Shown here one piece after another: positions 17,550-30,774 of a stretch of DNA of 64,000 nucleotides. A program made the position numbers and the translations under genes. The stretch lies in the NCBI GenBank assembly GCA_010093815.1, contig ML996572.1. The stretch is one strand, 5' to 3'. The notes beneath the pieces were generated by a model. That model did no database searches. It saw only the letters and a list, made by a program, of their open reading frames with translations, and had not been told where the DNA came from. The stretch is from Pseudovirgaria hyperparasitica (lineage: Eukaryota). Each line of letters starts with the position of its first letter. Position 1 is the stretch's first letter.

Positions 17550-18362
17550 ATGTGTGGTCGTCTTGAAGGCAAAGTAGCCATCGTCACCGGCGGTGGTTCT
17601 GGCTTCGGGCGAGGCATCGTCGACAAGTTTACCTCAGAAGGTGCCCGAGTCCTGGCATGGGATATCGACGGATCAAAGCTCAAAGACTTTGCGTCTGGCC
17701 CGTCTGGCAGCCCAGAAGCTCTCATCCTAGACGCCACCCTAGAACAAGACTGGCGCCTCGCACTCGCCCACGTCCTCCGTTCATTCGGCAAGCTCGACAT
17801 CGTCGTCAACAATGCCGGCGTCGTGCACCGCAACCAGCCGTCCGAAACGACACCAGAAGACGAAGTGGACCGGATGTGGCGCGTCAATGTTAAGCCGATA
17901 TACTACAGTAGCAAGGTCATCGTTCCGTACTTCCGTGAGGTCGGCCACGGACAATTCATCAACCTCTCAAGCATATCGACACCTCGGCCCAGACCGGGAC
18001 TGGTGTGGTATGCTGCGAGCAAAGGGGCTGTCACAGCAGCTACGAGAGGCTTGGCCGCGGAATATGCACCGTACAAGATCCGGGTGAATTGCATACAGCC
18101 AGTCTTTGGCGATACTGGGATGTATGTTGCTTTAGCAAACGCCATGTTGGTACTGCATGTGCTGACAGGATGTAGGGCAGAGAACGTCATGGGAGGGTGT
18201 ATCACTCCTGAGAAGCATGCTACACTGATTAGTGGTATTCCGCTAGGGCGAGGTGCTACGCCAGAGGATATAGGTAATGCTGCCTGCTATTTAGCCAGCG
18301 ACGAAGCAAGCTTTCTGACGGGTGTATGCTTGGATGTGGATGGAGGTCGTAGCTTGAACTGA
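17550..18362 (+). CDS. Short-chain dehydrogenase/reductase (FabG/TsaC-like)
   Basis: TGGGSGFG Rossmann motif, VNNAG, catalytic YAASK, IRVNCIQP, LASDEASFLTG...VDGG. Probable 54-nt intron at 18122-18175. Confidence 0.93.
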   Translation: MCGRLEGKVAIVTGGGSGFGRGIVDKFTSEGARVLAWDIDGSKLKDFASGPSGSPEALILDATLEQDWRLALAHVLRSFGKLDIVVNNAGVVHRNQPSETTPEDEVDRMWRVNVKPIYYSSKVIVPYFREVGHGQFINLSSISTPRPRPGLVWYAASKGAVTAATRGLAAEYAPYKIRVNCIQPVFGDTGMYVALANAMLVLHVLTGCRAENVMGGCITPEKHATLISGIPLGRGATPEDIGNAACYLASDEASFLTGVCLDVDGGRSLN

Positions 18363-18745: not shown

Positions 18746-21700
18746 CTACGCCTTCCACTTACCTTTTCCCTTCTTGCCACCACCAAGCACACCCATTGCC
18801 TCCTTCTCGCCATTCTCCACCTCTCCATCCACCAACTTGGCCGTATGATCCAATGCTCCCGTCTCCCCTGTCTGTCTGTTCCTCAGCAGATTGTCTGGGA
18901 AGGGAAACATTGTACTCCTCTTCGGCGGCTGTATTTGACTCGCGAATGCCCACCAGTGCCTTGCCAAATCCATCCCCAGCACATCCGTCATTGGCGTCAA
19001 AATTGGCACTACCAGCCCTAGAATAGCATAGCTTGTAACCCCAACAAGAGTCACAGACACGTCGTACGAGAAATTGTGATCTGTGAGGAAGACGAGCAGC
19101 CAGGAGCCCCAAGACCAGAAGATGACACCGTGGATCAGGTATATTGTGAATATGTGCGGAAAGATGGTCTGGAGGACGCGGTTGGAGAGGATCATCTGCA
19201 TGAAGGGGGATATCTCGATGATGGTTTGCAGTGAGCTTGCGGCGATCAAGCCGTTTAGGCGTGGTACGAAGTATTCCGGATACTGACTTCCCTTCGTCTG
19301 TGTGACGGGAGACGCGGTGGCCCAGTCTGGATGCCAGCCGTTCTCAGAAACACTCAGGTTGAACTTTGTGAGCTGCGGCGTAATGTTTGACACGACTGCC
19401 CCGATGGCGAGGAGGGTACATGTGGTGACAAGGGGATAGTACACCCAGAGGTGGCTGTGGAGATATTTTCTGTATTTGTATGTTATGTCGAGGTCGGAGA
19501 GGAGGATGCCGACGTAGAAGTACGCGTTCCAGCTTTGCGCGTACCAGCCGTTGACGATACAGAATGCATAAAAGGACATCCTTTTCCATGGATTGCGAAT
19601 CTCACGGATGACGAGGATGGAGAGAAGGATCAGCCATGTTGATTGAAGCTGGACGGCGACCGTCCACAAGACTCCTGTGCAGTAGTGGAATACCTATTTG
19701 AGTAGTGCGTTAGCTCAAGGAGTCCATCAATCAGAGCTTTTGACTTACAATCTGAGGAAAACCATTGGGGATGAGAAAGCCTAGTTCGAGCATCTCGTTC
19801 AGGAAGATAGCAAACGAAGGAAACCGCTCCACATACGGCCACTGAGACCAGGTGATCGAGGGAGTATACTGAAGGAACCGTGTAGCACCAGCGTCAATGA
19901 GAAAGTACTCAATAAGAACTATCGCTGTGACAGGAATCATGAATCGGGGGATCCTGCGGACTGCAACTGACGCAATATGCCTCAGATCGCCATCCTCGAG
20001 GTACCGATCAACCATGAAACGACAAGAACTAGTGAAGAAGAGACCGAGCCAAAGCTGAGAAAGAATCACAGGTGAAACGTACATCCGGACAAAGTTCTCG
20101 GAGCTGTGGTGAACAACCCGGTCTCCAGGTGAGATTGCGGCAGGAACAAAAGAGAGGCAGAAGTGCTGGACTGTTACAATGACCGCACAGAAAGCGACAA
20201 TACCTGCGAGATAGTCGACTCGAGCCCTCTTTGCCTCATTGAGTGGCTTTTTGACTGGCTCAGGGCCTGCTTGTTCCACGGAAGACGCCGCCTCTGAGTT
20301 TCTGATTTGATCCTTCGTCATGGTATCATCTTCAATATTCCCATCATTCAGGGTTAGATAGTCTTCCGCCAATGATCTCTCATGAGGACTTATCAGGGGA
20401 GTACCAATAGGACTTATCATGGGCGTTCCCAGGGGACTGTGAGTCGGGACATCAGTTCGAGATGTGCTTCTCGAAGAAGCTTTATGATGTTCGTGACGTG
20501 GGAGTAGCATAGATGTTATATGCGGTGTCCCAGGGGTTGCTGGGGTCCCAGGCGTGCCAGGTCTTGACGGTGGCTGATTCATTTGGTAGATTGACGTAAT
20601 CAGAGGCACAGCTGGCGAGTCCAAACCGAGGCAGCTGAAGTCCAAGCGACCAGGGTGCTGTCTGGATATGGACCGAGAAGATCCAGGTCTCGAATTTCCA
20701 TATCGAGGAGTTTCGGCTTGGGAACCACCAGGTCGGGAGGCTGTGGGCCGGGTGGTACCTGGCCTCAGTGTGCTAGAACTCGACATTGGATGAATGCTTC
20801 CAGAAGCAGGGCCAATAGTAAGATCGTCAGCCAACGTTACTCCAGAATATGTTGAGCAAGCCGATGATTGTGGGTTCTCGCTTCGGAGCTTGTCGACTTG
20901 ACGAGATCTTATATCGGAATGTCCAGCCTTAGTCCTTGAGCCTGAACTACTTGCACGTGAGGGGAAAGATTCCATGCTCTCTTTTGGAGAATTCCCATTG
21001 TCTGAAATCAATGTATCCTTCAAGCCATCATCGGCATAATCTGAAGAATCAATCTGCCTTGATCCACGAATCACACGAATTGAAGGAAGAGCACGTGGGG
21101 ACGTGAAGGAAGTTCCAGACTTGGCCTTGCGACGCTCTCGTACCAGCTTCCATGGTTCCCAAATATATATGGCATGGCATAGGACCAAGAATGAAACAGA
21201 CAGACAGAACACAGCGATAACAATTGCGGGAACCCTCTTTGGCTCTTTGGGGTGTTTGTGCTCATACTTCTCGAGTGCGGTGGCGTTGTATGAGGATACA
21301 CCCCTTAGTGTCGTGTCGTCGACTGAGCACGCCAGACTTGGTATACAGCGGGCATCGAAATCGCGGGCATCCGTCGTGGTACTGTTGAAGAACATTCTGA
21401 CCCATTCCACGCCAGCGAACCCGCGCTTCGTCGGCGGACCTTGCATAGAGTAATAATTGCCAGTCGACCAGTGCTTGATCTCAAATGGCACTGGTACGGC
21501 AGGGAGATCGGGCTGTTTCGCTTTGACAACCCTTCTAGTCGTGTTCGAGCCAATTGTAAAGTTCAACGTCGTGGCGTCCCAGTCAATCTTGTACTCCGTA
21601 AAGTTCCATGGGGACTCGATACCAATCTCCTTTGAACCGTTGGCAAGGACGGAAAAGTTAGACCCCAGGTTGCGGTCAGGAAATTCGCCGTTGACAAAAG

Positions 21701-22235
21701 TCCCAACCCACGCGTACGAGTCATTGGGGATGTCGGTGTTCATAAGCATGAATTCCATAGATTGCGTATCGTTCATCTGCAGGAGCATGGACAAGGCGCT
21801 GCCCCCTCCATTGTCCATTCCAGGCGGCTTCATTTTCGCTCTGAAGCTGCCAAACATTATATCTCTCCGGTCTGTCTGTATCGAAGATCCCATCACCAAA
21901 TGGTTCTTCAGGAACGGGTCAATGTAAAGCTGTGCCGAATCCGACGACGAGTCCAGATATACATTATTTGGGGTGGCGCCCTGTCGAAAGACGGAATTCC
22001 AACCCTTTTCTTTCTTGTTCTTGTAAGATTGCACGATCCAGCCATCATCAAAAGTAGATGACTCGTTGAAGAAAGTGACCATGCCATCAGTGAATATATT
22101 TCCAGACGAGGAGTCGCGGAATCCGCAGTCACATATGCTTCCATCCCCTCTTCGCACATCTGCCCATGCACCTGCCCCCAGAATCAAGATCAGAACGCAT
22201 CGCCGCAGGACGCTGAACGATGTCGCATACAGCAT
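18746..22235 (-). CDS. Fusion protein: signal peptide + GH16/ConA-like domain + TM helix + S/P-rich linker + multi-TM acyltransferase-3 (OafA-like) domain, 2 exons
   Basis: MLYATSF...GAGAWA signal; CDCGF, SSIQTDRRDIMFGSFRAKMK, EYKIDW, KHWSTGN...QGPP (GH16-like); RVDYLAGIVAFCAVIVTVQHF, RRIPRFMIP, GVLWTVAVQLQ, IYLIHG (acyltransferase-3-like). Intron 19748-19694. Confidence 0.85.
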
Positions 22236-24304
22236 AGTTGTGAGAGCATGCACCTTTGGGAATCTAGGATGTGCGACTGTAAGGTAGCATGAAAGGTGAA
22301 AGACCAAGGGGAAACCGACGTAATCCGAGCACCAAGCAGGCCAGATCCTTGGGGATGAACAATGATGCTCTCGACTAGCCCCTGCGGATCAAGTAGCCAG
22401 AATGCAGAAAAGGATCAGTTGCTGAGCGGATCGATTTAGGGACCGTCGATTGGGGTATAAAGTCCATTGCAGCTATGGCTGGACTTCACCCGGTCGATCA
22501 AACTCATGAATCTGGGTCGACTACAGTGAGTCCAACATGATGGTGATCATGTTGGCATCACTTTTGCAGGTCCACTTCCGCCTCAAGCGCGGAATTGAGG
22601 GTCCAGAATGTGAAGATGTAATCAGTATTCCGAGTTCCACTTTTTTGGCCGGAGGGCACGATGTAGGCCCCGATGCTGGACAACCAGCTAGGAAAGGTAC
22701 GGTCGGGGATGTAGATATCTCAGCCCGATTTGGACAAGGCATCGAGACATTGGATGAAGCCTTTCGAGCCGCTCGATCAGCCAGCTCGCTGCGCGCAAGA
22801 CCCCATATGCTGGAGCATCGTTCGCGCGCTACCGGCAGGATCTGTAGCCCATGTCCGAGAAATGCAAGTATACCAAAGTGGTTCGACTGCCTTCAATGAC
22901 ATCGTAATGCCCCTGTTTCGCTGTTCCAGCCCCGATGGAGTTTTGGCCAGATGTGGCCGTCGTGGACCGCCCAAAGTCGCGAGACTAAGTTGACGACTTC
23001 TCAATCGTGGCAAACATGGCTAGACAGTACACCAGTGCCTGGTCAACCACCCAAAGATGGCTGTCACGACCCCGCAAATGTTCAACCGAATGAGGATGGG
23101 ACCGATTGAAGAGGCTACCACCGGGGGTTCGGCGTCGAAAACATGCCCACGTCCGATCATCTCATGTGGGACACCACGTCAGCTTCACGCGGCGCAGTAA
23201 GGTGACAGAAACGGAATGTTCTCTATGACTTCAGCATCGAGATGGCATGCACCATTCGTAGCTTGGCAGAGGAGATGTTTGCTAGGCACGTCCAGTCCAG
23301 TCTAGTCCAATCTCCATGTCAGTCAGATGGGAAAGAGAAAAGGGTCAGGCACATTGGCTCTTGAACCCATCCCGTCAGTGCGAGCCTACATATGACAGCA
23401 CATACGTGAAAATAGTTGAGTATCTGATACGTATCCTCATAACACGTAAATGATGTATATACATCTACATATATCGCCAAAAACTATAACATAGCAACCA
23501 CATACTTCCAACACAAACAGGATAGTATCAAGCACACAGAACAACCACATCCAGACATCCCCAACCAAATAGCCCATCCTACCATCAGCATCCATCACAC
23601 GCCTGGAACCCAAAGTAACGAACCCGATCCAGACATCCACTAGACAAAGTCGATCCAAACAATCCATGGCGCACTATATCGCCCTGGCATCTCAGCCGCG
23701 CCAAGGAGTTTCCATGTACCTCGCTCGGTAGCAACGGAATCAGGGGTGTCAGCTCCCCTTTACTCGTGGATGCGCAGCTTCCAGCTTCCTTTTGAGGGGT
23801 AATTTAGTGGGTGGATGGAATGGAAAGGAATGAATGGATGGATGGATGGATGGGTAGATGGATTGGCCGTTCTAGGCCGGAATCGTGATTCCACCGAGCG
23901 CCAAACACAACCACAACACATAGTATGCACACTCCATGCTTTCATGTGAGACACGAAACGGGCGGGCCAATACCTCCACACCACCACCACTGCCCCCTCC
24001 CCTTTGGGAAGCTCGACTGGATCTATAGACTACGAAAAATGCTGAACAGAGAGGGCCGCACAGGCAGGGGGTGACTTGGCGGGTTGCTTGACATTGCCCG
24101 AAATGTGATTCGAGATGGTAGCTGTCATCGATTGCTAGTTTGGAGTGTGCTCGAGGCATTCGGTGCAGCAATTGACATGAATGTGGTGATGTGCAATGTA
24201 TGTGTGGCGAGCATACCTTATCTGCACATGATATGTAAAGTCTATAGAGTGAATGAGGTGAATAAACACGTAAAGCAATACCAAGAAAAACACAAACACC
24301 ACAA

Positions 24305-25908
24305 TCACGACCGCACCGTCGGATTCCACGACGAATACCGCGCCACCTGCCGCGCATGCCCATACAGCCCAATCGTCGCATTAACAATGATATAAAACGC
24401 ATAAAACACACTAAACACCACAATATCCCACCGTGTCACAAACTCCGACTTGACCCGATTCGTAATCCAGAGCGTGGCAACGAGGCACAGCACACTCAGA
24501 AAGAACAACCACCACGCAATCGGATACTGGAAAAAGAGAAAGTGCAGCGCCCCGAGCCCGCTCTTTGGCCACCGCGAGATGACGAAGCTGAAGGTGAGAC
24601 AGGTGCACTGCGTGACGAGGTAGTAGCTCCACTCGCGGATGAAGAGCAGGCTGAAGATGCCGAAGCGGATCCGGGCTGTTCGGGGCCGTTGCTCGGGAGG
24701 TGCGTTCCAGGTCATTTGGAGGTGGCGGGCGCTGGCTTGGGTCCAGCCTTGGGCCCAGCGGAGGCGCTGCTTCCAGAAGGTAGGCCAGGTTGTGGGTGCG
24801 AGCTCGTAGGAGGTGACGTTCATGTCGTGGACTGCGTTGGCGCCGTGGGAGAGGGCGCGGAGGGCGCTGTCGATGTCTTCGGTCAGCATGCTGCCGTCCA
24901 TCTTGAGCTTCTTCAGCAGGTCGCTGCGCCAGTAGCCGTTGGATCCGCAGAAGAGCTGTGCCGGGGGGATTAGTTCACTACTCTTATGTCGTAGAGATAC
25001 ATCTTTGTACTTACGCCGAAATTCCACATGACGGCCCGGCCGGGGTGCGACACGGCGTATATCTTGTCGAACTCGACCGCGATCATCTTCGTGAGGAAGT
25101 TGTCCTGGGAATTGAAGATGATGCAGCGGCCTTGCACGATGTCAATGTCGGACGACTGTGCAAAGCGCTCCATGGCCCATCGGCTCGCGTTCGGATGCGG
25201 GTAGTGATCCGCGTCAAAGATGGCGATGACGTCGGAATCAGGCTCAACGCAATGCGTCAGGAAGTGGTTCAGGTTGTCGGCCTTTGACGTTGAGTTTGGC
25301 ACTTTGACAACCCGGAGATGGTGGTGTTCCTTTGCCAGCACTCTGAGGTCGTTCTCGACGTCTGGTATGGCCTTGGGCGTGTTGTACAAGACGTTGATCC
25401 TGATCTTGTCGCGGGGATATATGATCTTGTTGACCATGTAGTCGACACGGTCCAGGATGATGTCCTTTTCGTTGGGCAGATAGGCGACAAGGATGAGATC
25501 CAGCATGCCCAAGTCGCTATCAGGGGTCGGAAACACCCAATTCTTGGCCGACGCCTTCTCCACCACCTGACGTGACTCCTTGATGGGTGTGATGGAGAAG
25601 AAAGCCTCCAGAACGGTGCCGGCTGCCACGTAGAAGTTTGTCGCCAGATAGATGAAGAAGAAGACCTCGACAAAGGTCTGCGAGCAGACGAGATAGAGAC
25701 AGACGGAGAATGGGAAGTACGAGGACACGAGAAGGAAAGGGGTCCACTCGTGGATAAACTGCGATACTCTTGCAACCAAGCGAGGTTTTTTTGTTTTTGT
25801 CGCGACTTCGATTCCTGCGTCGGTGATTGAACTGGCTCCGCTCCCAACGTCTACGATGAAGTCCTTTGGGGAGAAGGACTTCATCTCCAGAGAAGCATCT
25901 CCGCCCAT
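24305..25908 (-). CDS. Processive membrane glycosyltransferase family 2 (cellulose/hyaluronan-synthase-like), 2 exons
   Basis: VAYLPNE, SKADNLN, FDADH (DxD), FG|LFCGSNGYW, MLTEDID (TED), QRLRW (QxxRW), with N- and C-terminal TM helices. Intron 25014-24956. Confidence 0.92.
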
Positions 25909-25949
25909 GACGATCTGTTCCACGACACTTCAGAGCGGACGGTGGTTTT

Positions 25950-26036
25950 CAACAGCCAAGTGAAGACCACAAACAAGTAGACAGCCCAACAGCCAAGTGA
26001 AGACCACAAACAAGCAGATAACCCAACAGCCAAGTG
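25950..26036. repeat. 37-bp direct tandem repeat (2.3 copies) directly upstream of the GT2 start
   Basis: caacagccaagtgaagaccacaaacaag(t/c)aga(c/t)a(g/a)cc twice, plus a partial third copy caacagccaagtg. Confidence 0.9.
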
Positions 26037-26327
26037 GAAAAAATAAATCGACAGTCACAAAAGTCACAAAGAAGTACTAATTACCCCAACGCCGCCGAGA
26101 CCCCAAAAGAATATATCCAAAAACCCCGATTCCCACCACAAAAACTTCAACAAGCTCTAGATCACAGCCCCCTGGACCGAGGGCCGGGCTCGGAAGCAGT
26201 GACAGATCCGTCAGCCTGACACTCGATTCCCGCACTACTTACTGATGAAGAAACAATTTTTCTTCCTCTTCTCAGCCTTGAGCTACGGGTCCGTCTTGGC
26301 ATAGATCGGTGGTATGGAGCATGGCTG

Positions 26328-26401
26328 ATGGATGGATGGATGGATGGATGGATGGATGGATGGATGGATGGATGGATGGTTGGATGGATGGATGGATGGA
26401 T
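26328..26401. repeat. (GGAT)n microsatellite
   Basis: About 18 GGAT units with one interruption. Confidence 0.95.
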
Positions 26402-27250
26402 CGCGAGCGAGCAAAGGGCTGATCTCGGCACAAAAGGCGAGCGAGCAGGACGTGTATGTGATGCTACGTGGACCACTGAGGCTGAGCCCCAAGGCCTGGA
26501 ATGAAGAAGCGGGAGGTCCATCAGCTCCGTTCATTGCGATTTGGTGGAACGGCGCGATCGATCGATTGATGATTCGGGCATTCGAGCGTGCGCTCAAGTG
26601 CTGGAATGTGACACCAGCCAGCCGTGTTGAGGCCAGGTCAGGTCAAGTCAGGTCAGGTCAGGTCAGGGATTGGAAGTCCTCATGAATTGGATGTGGAGAC
26701 GTCGAAGACACACCCACACCATCCACCCACACCAGCCACCAATGCGGCCCAAAACCTGTCAGCCTTGCGTCAATCCGGATCGCCGTCATTCCGGGCGGGG
26801 GGTGGCCCGATCGATCGTCCCGGGCCCCGGCCGGTCTGCGAACCATGGTTCATGCACCGCAACTCGACAACAAGTCATCTTGTGGATTCGTGCATCCATC
26901 CGTATGTATCCTCGGCGTGCCATCATTGCCGCGAACTTGTGATGGATATGCTGGGTGTGTGAGATCCTGTGAGCTAGTAGGGTTTTTTGTTAAAACTGCT
27001 ACTTGATGAGGAACAGGGGCAGCAGTTCTATCGACAGGGTCAGATGTGGATTCGACAGAGAGATAGACCTTTTGGGTTGAATCGTCTATCCAGGCAGGGG
27101 GTTGTATCCATATGCCAGCGTGATAAGTACAGCATCACGGCAACACAGATCCCCTCTTCTCTTCTCTCCTCCTTTCCTCTGCCCTCCTCTCCTCTCCTCT
27201 CCCCTCCTCTCCTCTCCCCCCAACCCATCCTCCACCCTCCCCAAAACACA

Positions 27251-28753
27251 ATGCCAACCACCGCCCAAACCATCCAAACCGACCTCCACGCCCTCGAAAC
27301 CCTCCACCGCCACTCCCTCAACACCCACCTCCTCGGCCTCCGCGGCCTCCTCACCCTCCTCACAACCCTCACCTTCTTCCTCACCACCTTCGTCCCCTCC
27401 GCCGTCAAGACCGCCGACCCGTCCGCCCAAACCCCCGGGCCCCTGTACGCCACCATCCTCCGCAAGACCCTCGGCCCCCTCTTCTGGAACCAGTTCCTCC
27501 TCTACTCCTTCTTCATCTTCCTGTCTGCCCGCTCCGTCTGCATTCCCTTTCTGCATTCCCACGCCCGGCTGGATTTCGCGCGGGTTGTGTTTCAGCGCGG
27601 GGTGAGGCTGTGGACTCCTACGGCGGTGGCACTACTGTGTGCGTGGGGCGCAATGAGCAAGTGGGGGCATGTCGTCGAGCGGTTCAGGCAGCGCACGGGA
27701 AACAGCAACATGCAGCCGCTGTTCCACATCAAGGACACAGGCGTGTTCTTCAACGCGCTGTTCAACGTCTTCTGGGTCAACAAGGCGTTCTTCAATCAGG
27801 CTGCTAGCACCGCGTTTCCCGGCCAGATGCTGTGGATGGTCTCGGTCATATACCAGCAGTCGTACGTTGCCCTGAGAGTCACCCTTCCTGTAGCAAAGCC
27901 CAGAAACTGACGAGACGAACGCGTAGCTACACAGTCTACATGACCATGCTAATAACCCCCTACACGCTCCCGACCTGGCGCATCAAATCCCTAACCGCCC
28001 TCACCCTAGCCGCCTACTGGGTCCAGTCCTGGGCCTGGTACTCCATAACCGCCCTCCTCCTCTCCGACACCCTCATCAACACCTCCCTCGCCACCCACCT
28101 CCGCCGGCCCATCACGCTCAAGCTCGGCACGCGCAGACTCGGCTACTGGGCCCTCGGCCTGCCCACATGGCCGCTCTTCGTCCTTGTGATGCTGACGGGC
28201 GCCATCCTCTCGTACGTCTACGCCGCGTATCGCCCCGGGTGGACGAACAGGGAGCTTGTCGCGCACGCCGGGATGTATTATTCTGGGGGTTTGAATACGC
28301 GGCCGGATGTGCGGGAGCCGCAGGCGCGGGTGGATAATTATCTTGTTGTTGTGGGGTTTTTTGGATTGCTTGAGTCGTGTAGGGCGGTGCGGTGGTTTTG
28401 TCGGCTGCCGCTGTTTGTCTTTCTGGGGCGTCGGTCGCTTAGTATGTTTGCCGATCTTTCCCCCTATTCCCCCCCTTTTTTTCCCGTGGTGTTTGATACA
28501 TGGGTACTCATGACGATGATGACTGATACCAACAGGCTACTTCCTCACCACGCCCATCGTGCTCTACACCGCGGGCATCGGCCTGTTCGACGCGCTGCAC
28601 TTTTACAACGAGATGGGCAGAGAGGCTGCCGTGGCGGTTGTGGCTGTCATCATGGCTCCGGCTGTTGTCGCGGCGGCGGAGGTGTTTTACTGGGTTGTCG
28701 ACCGGCCGAGTATTGCGTTTGCGCGCTGGGCGTGGGCGTTTGCGACGGCGTGA
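27251..28753 (+). CDS. Multi-TM acyltransferase-3-like membrane protein, 3 exons, divergent from the GT2 gene
   Basis: HLLGLRGLL (LDGLRG-like), FFIFLSARS, FQRGVRLWTP (RxxRLxP), FPGQMLWMVSVIYQQS|YTVY, LGRRSLS|YFL, FYWVVDRPS. Resembles the C-terminal domain of the 18746-22235 gene. Confidence 0.82.
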
Positions 28754-29308: not shown

Positions 29309-30774
29309 CTACAGAAACCACCGAAACTCCTCCCCCGCCGGCCCCTCCCTCAGCAACGCCGTACTAATCTCCCTCGCCCTCCTTGTCGTCGTCAACCCCT
29401 GCCTCCGATCCCTCCGCCGATTATCCCAGGCCATCCAGCCGCCCAGACAAAGCGTAATCAGGCCGCCGGCCGCGCCAAACGCCGCCGTCGTCGCCAGCGC
29501 AGGCGCATACCTGGGCGCATCCCTGTTCCGGAAGATGTTACTGCTCACGACGCCCATCAGGTTCGCCAGCGGGACGCCGACGGAGGTGAGGGTGACGCGG
29601 CGGCCCTCGTGCGCGACGTTGTTGTTGTACCATGTCGAGAGCAGGACCGAGGGCGCGGACGTGCCCCAGGTCATCATGAAGCAGGCAAAGTAGGCCGTCT
29701 GGACATGGCCGTGCACGTCGATGGCGGCGTAGATGATGAAGCCGGAGAAGGTGAGGAGGAAGCCGAGGGCGATGAAGGGGAAGCGGATGCGCGAGAGGTC
29801 GGAGGCGAAGGCGAGGAGGAGCAGGACGAGGGCGCCGACGATGTTTGGCGCGACGGTGTAGAGGTTTGTCTTGATGGGGCTGTAGCCGAGGCGGGCGACA
29901 ATCTGGGGCAGGAAGAGGGAGACGGACTGCAGGGGCACGCCGAGGCAGATTTCGATGGCGAGGAAGCCGTAGGTGGCGGGGGTGCGGAAGATGGCGAGGG
30001 CGTCGCGCAGGTTGAAGGGCTCGTTGACGGTCGAGGAGGAGTCTTCCTGGATGCGGGTGAAGGCGAGGTTGCGTTCTGGCTCGGAGAGGAAGCGGGCTTC
30101 GGCGGCGGAACGGGGGAGGTACCAGAATGCGAAGAGGGAGACTGCGAGGGGAGGGAGAGTGTGAGTGAGAGTGAGAGAGGAGGAAGGGCATGGAGAGGTT
30201 GCAAGGACTTACAGGCAACTGTGATGGCGCCTTCAATCAGGAAGAGATAGCGCCAGCCCGGCAGCGAGGAGTCAATGTGGAAGACGCCAAACGCAAGCAA
30301 GCCGGAAAAGGCGTTTGCGATGTTTGACGCGGCGTAGAACATGGCCAGCCGGCGTGCCAGCTCTCCTCTCCGGTAGAATGTGGTCAAGTAGTAGATGACC
30401 AAGGGGAAGAAGGCCGACTCGGCCATGCCCAGAAACCATCTCAGGGCAAAGATGCCCCCAAAGTTGTGCACACTCGCACTCAGGAGCGTCATGCTCCCGA
30501 ATGAAAACATGAGAATGGGCAGCACCCTTGCGGGGCCATACTTTTTGCCCAGAAAGGCCAGCGGCGGGGCGAAGAGCACATACGGCACGAAGAAGATGCT
30601 GAGGATGATGTTCCAGTCGGTGGGCTTGAGGTTGAGGTCCTTTTCGATGTTGCTGTCGTCGGCTGTTAGTCACGTGCTCGTGGACGTGGGATATGCCCGG
30701 GCGACATACTTTGTCTTTGCATTTCCGAGGTTGCCTTTGTCGAGGGCACTGTCGATGGATTAGTATGATGAGAT

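Follow-up and report, generated by a model that had tools for sequence, protein, structure and literature searches.

The locus described here lies on contig ML996572.1 of the Dothideomycete Pseudovirgaria hyperparasitica (assembly GCA_010093815.1), within a stretch of 64,000 nucleotides that was analysed as a whole (hereafter, the window). It comprises three adjacent genes, designated A, B and C, which encode: (i) a fusion of a GH16-fold domain with an acyltransferase-3 (AT3) domain, (ii) a membrane glycosyltransferase of family GT2 and (iii) a paralogue of the AT3 domain of A that has lost both of its histidines (His-less). The outer ends of the trio, 18746-28753, match the stop codons of A and C exactly. 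We consider it probable, with considerable room for doubt, that these genes constitute one conserved fungal module making and modifying an extracellular or outer-wall glycan. The genes, their parts and their motifs are listed below (TM, transmembrane).

18746..22235, minus strand: gene A, GH16-fold/TM/linker/AT3 fusion of 1144 residues; exons 22235..19749 and 19693..18746, intron 19694-19748
21276..22148, minus strand: extracellular GH16-fold domain of A, residues ~30-320, following the signal peptide, with 10 N-x-S/T sequons and conserved Cys pairs
21161..21233, minus strand: TM helix of A, residues 335-359
~20271-21125, minus strand: Ser/Pro/Thr-rich linker of A, 285 residues (371-655), presumably cytosolic
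18875..20222, minus strand: AT3 domain of A, about residues 672-1100, with the intron inside
20222-20204, 20171-20162 and 20039-20018, minus strand: AT3 motifs of A, respectively RVDYLAG, VQHF (with the invariant TM1 His) and FFTSSCRF
19958-19934 and 19162-19129, minus strand: AT3 motifs of A, respectively RRIPRFMIP and FPHIFTIYLIHG
24305..25908, minus strand: gene B, membrane GT2 synthase of 514 residues; exons 25908..25015 and 24955..24305, intron 24956-25014
25488-25470 and 25215-25206, minus strand: motifs of B, respectively VAYLPNE and DADH (residues 232-235)
24952-24941, 24883-24877 and 24769-24757, minus strand: motifs of B, respectively FCGS (300-303), TED (323-325) and QRLRW (361-365)
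25909..27250: divergent B-C intergenic region, 1342 bp between the starts of B and C
27251..28753, plus strand: gene C, His-less paralogue of the AT3 domain of A, 447 residues; exons 27251..27861, 27927..28441 and 28536..28753
27329-27346, 27521-27535 and 28423-28440, plus strand: motifs of C, respectively LLGLRG, LSARS and LGRRSL

The gene models were assembled from window open reading frames (ORFs) broken by short GT..AG introns. An earlier reading of the letters alone (the sequence-only reading) had placed C in divergent orientation to B over a shared 1.3 kb, and this is what the models give, with the start of C on the opposite strand to the B ATG. Database proteins of the same fungus match B (P0001, 506 residues) and C (P0211, 421 residues, partial) at 100% over the aligned part, and the splice junctions of C are identical to those of the NCBI model P0211; homologues lend them support as well, intron 2 of C having a conserved position and intron 1 being absent from most homologues, whose protein sequence is continuous there. 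The P. hyperparasitica model of A, P0121 (870 residues, partial), shows 87% identity over 51% of the query and differs in splicing. It removes the ~270-residue Ser/Pro-rich linker as an intron (window 20271-21125). The 1144-residue model is more likely than P0121, because the reading frame stays open across the linker here, and a linker of similar length is present in homologues, often within one long ORF.

Transcript evidence came from two public runs from one sample (X1 and X2). In contigs of both, precisely the letters 24956-25014 are missing, bounded by GT..AG on the minus strand, which shows that these contigs stem from RNA and bears out the intron of B. A low-depth RNA contig ending at 19693 continues with 8 further letters that are the end of exon 1 of A, which fits the A intron. 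Both runs are without cover for the parts of gene A that fall between 19828 and 24111, a gap that carries no information on expression. Gene C is covered by one RNA contig (4884 nt in X1, 3934 nt in X2), which runs from 27232 past 29100 towards a gene of the major facilitator superfamily (MFS).

The conservation of the trio was assessed with a pattern scan of metagenome contigs based on the GT2 alignment, which gave 380 matching stretches, 326 of them confirmed; the best 80 entered the analysis. Distinctness was judged on an exact 200-nt stretch of the GT2 gene, which left 64 loci among these 80, and 18 of the 64 were testable, i.e. had at least 6 kb upstream and at least 4 kb downstream of the GT2. 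By tblastn, all 18 testable loci have both gene C and the GH16 portion of A within 10 kb of the GT2. The AT3 part of A was detected (E <= 1e-30) in 17 of them, the contig of the 18th (L052) ending inside this domain. Three gene orders were observed: (i) A divergent from the GT2 and C downstream (12 loci), (ii) A and C on the strand opposite to the GT2 and both upstream of it (5 loci, L052 included) and (iii) C divergent and A downstream, which is the order of the window (1 locus). The remaining 46 distinct loci consist of 28 shorter than 8 kb with neither partner, 11 of at least 8 kb with both, two of at least 8 kb with only A, two of at least 8 kb with only C, two below 8 kb with only C and one below 8 kb with only A; the four single-partner loci of at least 8 kb have less than 4.1 kb of flank where the missing gene would be expected. 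Clustering of ORFs of at least 110 residues from 22 chosen long loci (the 18 testable ones plus L002, L059, L060 and L062) returned A, B and C as the sole ORF families present in 22/22, the next families being other frames of the same genes, and no fourth conserved ORF family was found within about 10 kb in these loci.

Named genomes gave the same picture. In at least 15 named species, among the matches listed, the GT2 and the A homologue are on identically sized contigs, the shortest of which is 38 kb (Lepidopterella); the tags of the two genes are adjacent in Neocucurbitaria cava (004904 and 004905), and the GT2 and C are on identically sized contigs in Halenospora and Acephala. Members of the family also occur in Aureobasidium pullulans and Paecilomyces variotii. 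The claim that the three adjacent genes form a coherent unit was thereby upheld: the orthologues are linked. This is strong evidence that the co-location is not a matter of chance and that the trio is one conserved unit. An alternative in which the linkage reflects shared regulation or mere chance, with no common pathway, has nothing specific in its favour beyond the variability of the flanking genes: the short-chain dehydrogenase and MFS ORFs on either side of the trio in the window are not conserved beside it in the other loci, one MFS ORF matching in 4 of them. Against it stand the presence of the three genes in every testable locus across three orders and the existence of fusion proteins (described below) that unite the same domain types, and we regard it as extremely improbable.

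Both exons of B match Pfam GT2 models, and B carries the GT-A motif set (DxD, TED, Q-x-x-R-W and FxCGS-like) by which processive membrane GT2 enzymes are recognised. When PDB sequences were searched with phmmer, BcsA alone matched B (E about 5e-9), and DADH, FCGS, TED and QRLRW of B aligned on the corresponding motifs of this cellulose synthase. All four are invariant or nearly so across 26 aligned orthologues, so that the full processive motif set ascribed to B by the sequence-only reading is confirmed. Hydrophobic segments lie on either side of the catalytic domain, B has a predicted C-terminal TM bundle, and in an Atlas structure model residues 14-506 superpose on bacterial GT2 models with a TM-score of 0.81. 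The NCBIfam model PgaC_IcaA (TIGR03937) matches B over nearly its whole length (E 1.3e-22) with 80.3 bits, below the equivalog cut-off of 422.3, and CelA (TIGR03030) matches it (E 2e-21) with 75.7 bits, below the cut-off of 699.1. Judged by its sequence, B is an intact membrane GT2 of the BcsA/PgaC type.

A protein search with the first exon of B gave 604 matches at E <= 1e-3 among 1235 candidates. Dothideomycetes, Eurotiales, Leotiomycetes and lichen fungi are the sources of the named ones among the matches listed (120 of the 604), whose identity to the first exon is 50-69%; for 25 full-length orthologues, identity to P0001 is 54-63%. An exhaustive search of representatives with the GT2 returned 5207 proteins at E <= 1e-3, and beyond the orthologues the matches listed include GT2s of bacteria (Nocardioides, cyanobacteria) that are about 35-46% identical, as well as chytrid and basidiomycete proteins. 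Among 30 representatives looked up, there was no protein named CPS1, CpsA or TFT1.

Many B orthologues bear the NCBI label 'N-acetylglucosaminyltransferase-like', which would suit an alternative in which B makes short oligosaccharides, as NodC makes chito-oligomers, and the AT3 proteins decorate a secreted signal. Nod-factor pathways also employ AT3 O-acetyltransferases. However, the predicted C-terminal TM bundle, FCGS and QRLRW are common to B and the channel-forming BcsA, the large TM-anchored extracellular lectin domain proposed for A (see below) would be more in keeping with a polymer or the wall than with an oligomer that diffuses away, and no conserved NodA/NodB-like gene is present nearby in the 22 clustered loci. 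We therefore hold this alternative to be quite improbable, and a polymer-making synthase is assumed in what follows.

Homologues of A numbered 90 among 8000 scored candidates; most are 900-1160 residues long and have the same layout, namely signal peptide, GH16-fold domain, single TM helix, Ser/Pro/Thr-rich linker and AT3 domain. The N-terminal part of A matches Pfam GH16 (PF00722; E 9e-7, 29 bits against a cut-off of 22), as do 24 of the 26 A family members. An AlphaFold2 model of residues 1-340 has a predicted local distance difference test score (pLDDT) of 88.1, and Foldseek returned 461 matches at E <= 1e-3, mostly GH16, the best being lichenases and laminarinases (top 3wvj_A, E 7.5e-12, about 14% identity). 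This layout, the GH16 fold and the Pfam matches in relatives agree with the description of A in the sequence-only reading as a GH16-like/AT3 fusion of secretory topology.

The hydrolase function that had been allowed for this module fared differently. The catalytic strand motif of GH16 is E-x-D-x-x-E, and the stretch that must contain this strand is G131-W196 (P0121 numbering). In the 26 aligned A sequences, no invariant or nearly invariant Asp/Glu occurs between these two positions. In a HMMER alignment to VvEG16, the catalytic strand lands on A-W-V-G-T in A, and an alternative register by strand order (S-M-E-F-M-L-M-N in A) has no conserved acid pair either. The cleft aromatics W196, W205, W242 and W264 (P0121 numbering) are invariant in the same 26 sequences. 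Since no catalytic acid is conserved and the cleft tryptophans are invariant, the GH16-fold domain is probably a glycan-binding module and is unlikely to be a hydrolase.

These tryptophans can also be enlisted for another reading, in which the domain is an active Crh-like transglycosylase with non-canonical residues that cross-links the polymer to wall glucan or chitin, acylation being a side activity. Its other support comes from PDB sequences, among which Crf1 of Aspergillus fumigatus, a transglycosylase of the Crh family, matches the domain best (E 2e-5, limited to 57 profile positions). The lack of an invariant acid in G131-W196 and the position of the VvEG16 catalytic strand argue against it, as does the presence among the fold matches of Rv0315, a solved, inactive mycobacterial GH16 'pseudo-glucanase'. 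Such an activity is in our view improbable, and the domain is treated below as a candidate lectin.

Within the AT3 domain of A, the TM1 His, S-x-R, R-x-x-R-x-x-x-P and Y-L-x-H-G are the invariant motifs: H459, S505/R507, R529/R532/P536 and Y782-L783-x-H785-G786 (P0121 numbering) are kept in 26/26 sequences, H459 being H691 in the 1144-residue model. Gene C is related to this domain. A blastp comparison of C with the C-terminal half of A gave E 3e-8 at 23% identity, and hhalign aligned the C family with the AT3 domain of A at a probability of 99.3% (E 3.2e-20) over 389 columns, which is the whole AT3 domain. C and the AT3 domain of A have the motifs S-x-R, R..R..P, E...H and R...E in common, and the AlphaFold2 model of C has a pLDDT of 87.9. 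A word-based protein search with C returned only 7 longer proteins. By sequence and structure model, C is clearly a full-length paralogue of the AT3 domain of A with a predicted 10-TM transmembrane-acyltransferase (TmAT) fold.

A link between synthases of this kind and AT3 proteins is also seen among the relatives of B. A Pfam scan was made of 36 of 150 listed representatives of the GT2 relatives, and two of the 36 were GT2-AT3 fusions, P0248 and P0300. P0248 (from a metagenome) consists of the GT2 followed by a bona fide Pfam AT3 domain; P0300 (from an Oculatellaceae cyanobacterium) has a PAS domain, then a likewise bona fide AT3 domain and then the GT2. By domain content, the GT2 clade is tied to AT3 proteins by these fusions, and they support the parallel with the logic of bacterial acylated exopolysaccharides that the sequence-only reading had drawn. 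In the same 36 relatives, a BcsB domain was found in two, PgaA-barrel or TPR tails in three and GH16 in one, and many bear receiver or GGDEF domains. The attempt to read the sugar from the bacterial GT2 relatives was abandoned, as their accessory domains are both of the cellulose type (BcsB) and of the PNAG (poly-N-acetylglucosamine) type (PgaA/TPR). The GH16-bearing protein is filed under Quercus suber, where two relatives of the fungal GT2 occur (P0274 and P0283, one joined to GH16); these look like fungal sequence inside a plant assembly.

Besides the mixed accessory domains, several observations weigh against the view that the trio makes and acylates a glycan. On the A protein of the window, the Acyl_transf_3 profile (PF01757) aligns over positions 9-323 of its 326 with E 2.3e-4 and 20.7 bits, short of the cut-off of 31, and only 13 of the 26 A family members match it at E <= 1e-3 (best 3e-8). 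Of the domains named by the sequence-only reading, the profile searches accordingly bore out GT2 in B and GH16 in A, and left Acyl_transf_3 below cut-off in the A protein of the window and absent from C. None of 32 C members matches any Pfam family (PF01757 tested at E <= 0.01), and Foldseek found no match of the C model in the PDB at E <= 1e-3. In favour of the TmAT fold, an exhaustive structural search (VIA) with this model ranked HGSNAT (Z 14.4, 288-293 residues aligned) and GWT1 (Z 11.2) above the next unrelated chain (7.0), at 278-293 aligned residues and 9-11% sequence identity for the two, and Z values near 14 can also come from helical bundles. Both histidines of A are lost in C: the position of H459 is occupied by V/F/L/T, and H785 aligns to Q/T. 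The assignment of C to acyltransferase-3 by the sequence-only reading consequently stands as regards paralogy and fold and fails as regards the Pfam family and the histidines. Moreover, the sole RNA contig over C is unspliced through both predicted introns, and spliced C mRNA was not seen; antisense transcription, read-through, RNA that had not been spliced and carried-over DNA are all conceivable origins of this contig.

Two further points of this kind concern the synthase. In Paecilomyces lecythidis, 25 tags separate a GT2 copy (005455) from the GH16-AT3 gene (005430), a possible exception that would mean either that adjacency is not universal or that the genus has a second GT2 copy. The Paecilomyces proteins are P0074, P0218/P0394 and P0172, and the genus seemingly has two GT2 copies (P0074 and P0218). 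In a Capnodiales lineage, DxD and QxxRW are gone from the GT2s P0340 (Teratosphaeria nubilosa) and P0319 (Neophaeotheca triangularis), and TED is gone from P0319 too; neither has a Pfam GT2 match, and the trio-type GT2 is still kept. An isoform of the P0319 gene, P0386, is a single annotated model with a GT2-like part, GH16 and AT3. The Capnodiales GT2 of the trio looks, from its motifs, like a pseudo-synthase retained in the module, and a purely catalytic view of the synthase does not explain why a dead GT2 is retained.

The losses in C, in the GH16-fold domain and in the Capnodiales GT2, the last in a lineage that keeps the trio and so points to non-enzymatic roles, are what an alternative reading would draw on: instead of acylating the glycan, A and C would serve the synthase as structural parts, in export or as sensors, much as BcsB or PgaD do; an unacylated polymer would be made, and the complex would be held to wall glucan by the GH16-fold domain. 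The BcsB and PgaA-type partners fused to other GT2 relatives suit it as well. The invariance of all four AT3 motifs of A is, however, hard to account for without catalysis. Furthermore, according to the available part of a published account, GWT1, a member of the TmAT superfamily, is an active acyltransferase without a catalytic histidine (PMC12423673), and C may for this reason be active or not, by analogy. We judge the partner reading to be unlikely, and of the alternatives it is the one given most weight; that the trio makes and acylates a glycan is still preferred.

Comparison with known systems brings out what the trio has in common with each of them and where it departs. The staphylococcal icaADBC and E. 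coli pgaABCD systems likewise have a PgaC/IcaA-type membrane GT2 beside an AT3 membrane protein, and IcaC, a stand-alone AT3, is proposed to O-succinylate PNAG (available part of PMC12423673). In contrast to them, the score of B is far under the equivalog cut-off, two AT3-type proteins are present here, one of them fused to a GH16 fold, and the host is eukaryotic; neither a deacetylase (IcaB/PgaB) nor a small partner (IcaD/PgaD) is conserved within 10 kb in the 22 loci. In the AT3-SGNH O-acetyltransferases OafA/OafB and OatA, as described in the same partly available source (PMC12423673), an AT3 carrier is linked with an extracytoplasmic domain that contacts the glycan, and A resembles them in combining an AT3 acyl carrier and such a domain in one protein. 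The SGNH domain is a C-terminal esterase; in A, a GH16 jelly-roll that lacks catalytic acids takes the outside position, at the N-terminus, with a TM helix of its own and a long linker.

In the E. coli opgGH/opgC (mdoC) system for osmoregulated periplasmic glucans, the gene of an AT3 succinyltransferase is divergent from that of a membrane GT2 glucan synthase. The divergent order of B and C in the window is like this arrangement; unlike it, the trio is without an OpgG homologue, and the divergent B-C order is just one of three arrangements. HGSNAT and GWT1/PIG-W, the TmAT proteins that are the best structural matches of the C model, differ from C in that their acceptors are heparan sulfate glucosamine and glycosylphosphatidylinositol inositol, respectively, and in having no genomic link to a synthase. 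In sum, the trio resembles bacterial synthase-plus-AT3 systems (ica, opg, AT3-SGNH) yet belongs to none of them by the membership tests applied.

Among fungal proteins, the ZtGT2/CPS1/CpsA group is like B in being composed of membrane GT2s of about 500 residues. In the available part of the original report, ZtGT2 is a GT2 of roughly 52-56 kDa that is orthologous to CPS1 and that hyphae require to grow on surfaces (King et al. 2017, PMC5653360), and ZtGT2/FgGT2/CPS1/CpsA are proposed to make an outer-wall or matrix polysaccharide. The same part of the report describes a second GT2 paralogue group in Leotiomyceta, with one Zymoseptoria tritici paralogue, model 38873 (PMC5653360). As far as supplement 3 of that report is available, Mycgr3G38873 (chr 3:2141264-2143454) is a 'glycosyltransferase family 2' protein with TM but no InterPro domain, and rises from 16.6 to 61.8 FPKM (fragments per kilobase per million), i.e. 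about 3.7-fold, in the ZtGT2 deletion mutant in culture. The GT2 of the window, compared via published descriptions, belongs probably to this second paralogue group and is not ZtGT2 itself, because the Capnodiales proteins P0340 and P0319 are without a Pfam match just as 38873 is without an InterPro domain. Beside Mycgr3G38873, the neighbours listed in the available part of supplement 3 leave a gap of 5.2 kb (chr 3:2143454-2148649), in which a GH16-AT3 gene might be located. Neither 'acyltransferase' nor 'GH16' occurs in the main text of PMC5653360, and 'neighbouring' and 'adjacent' are likewise absent from it.

A further fungal GT2, AfTFT1, makes a (mixed-linkage) beta-glucan when expressed in Komagataella, according to the available part of a preprint (bioRxiv 10.64898/2026.09.17.752320); this part places TFT1 residues beyond 558, with a switch motif at 548-558, gives 70-96% identity within the TFT1 lineage and mentions neither GH16 nor an acyltransferase. 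The identification of B with the TFT1 mixed-linkage glucan synthase was rejected: TFT1 is longer, the identity within its lineage speaks against it, and HvCSLF6, the structural reference of TFT1, is not among the PDB sequence matches of B. GH16 enzymes typically act on beta-glucans such as the product of TFT1. In the literature searched for such clusters, no described fungal GT2/GH16/AT3 trio was found. This agrees with the statement of the sequence-only reading that no characterised fungal pathway has such a composition; the paralogous ZtGT2/CPS1/CpsA has published mutant phenotypes.

From these results, we infer how the module might work, i.e. the activity of each protein, the sugar, the acyl group and the biological role. 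B would be processive, building a polymer from a nucleotide sugar of the cytosol and threading the chain through its own channel, as BcsA/PgaC do. The AT3 domain of A would take an acyl group off acyl-CoA in the cytosol, pass it to the outer face and acylate the glycan, and its GH16-fold domain, located outside on its own TM anchor and with its catalytic acids lost, would be a lectin holding the nascent or the wall glycan. C would be either a second acyl carrier with other chemistry (cf. the His-less GWT1) or a non-catalytic partner. As for the product, a beta-glucan-like chain and an N-acetylglucosamine polymer are about equally open; the sequence-only reading had put forward an acylated beta-glycan that would act in adhesion, matrix or immune masking. 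More tentatively, and with doubt prevailing, the trio can be pictured as a synthase-dependent machine of filamentous fungi, in which a dead GH16 lectin stands in the place of SGNH, a His-less AT3 paralogue is an obligatory third subunit, the product is an O-acylated outer-wall or matrix glycan and the module outlives the catalysis of its synthase.

The polysaccharides of the fungal outer wall and matrix, which influence adhesion, growth on surfaces and recognition by hosts, are still ill-defined; the trio offers three concrete, co-inherited genes. The architecture of GH16 fold, TM helix, linker and AT3 domain was not found in the literature searched. The module also presents a series of pseudo-enzymes, with a GH16 that appears dead everywhere, a His-less AT3 (C) everywhere and a seemingly dead GT2 in one lineage. 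If the glycan is indeed O-acylated by the module, this would be the first fungal counterpart, within the literature searched, of the synthase-linked AT3 glycan acylation of bacteria.

The remaining features of the region lie around and between the three genes.

17550-18362, plus strand: flanking short-chain dehydrogenase (Pfam adh_short, E 1e-41)
about 29309-30669, minus strand: flanking MFS transporter
25950-26036: 37-nt tandem repeat, 2.4 copies, in the B-C intergenic region, directly upstream of the GT2 start
26327-26401: (GATG)19 microsatellite in the B-C intergenic region
27153-27217: CT-rich repeats in the B-C intergenic region

RNA contigs cover 25909-26317 and 26416-27145 of the B-C intergenic region.

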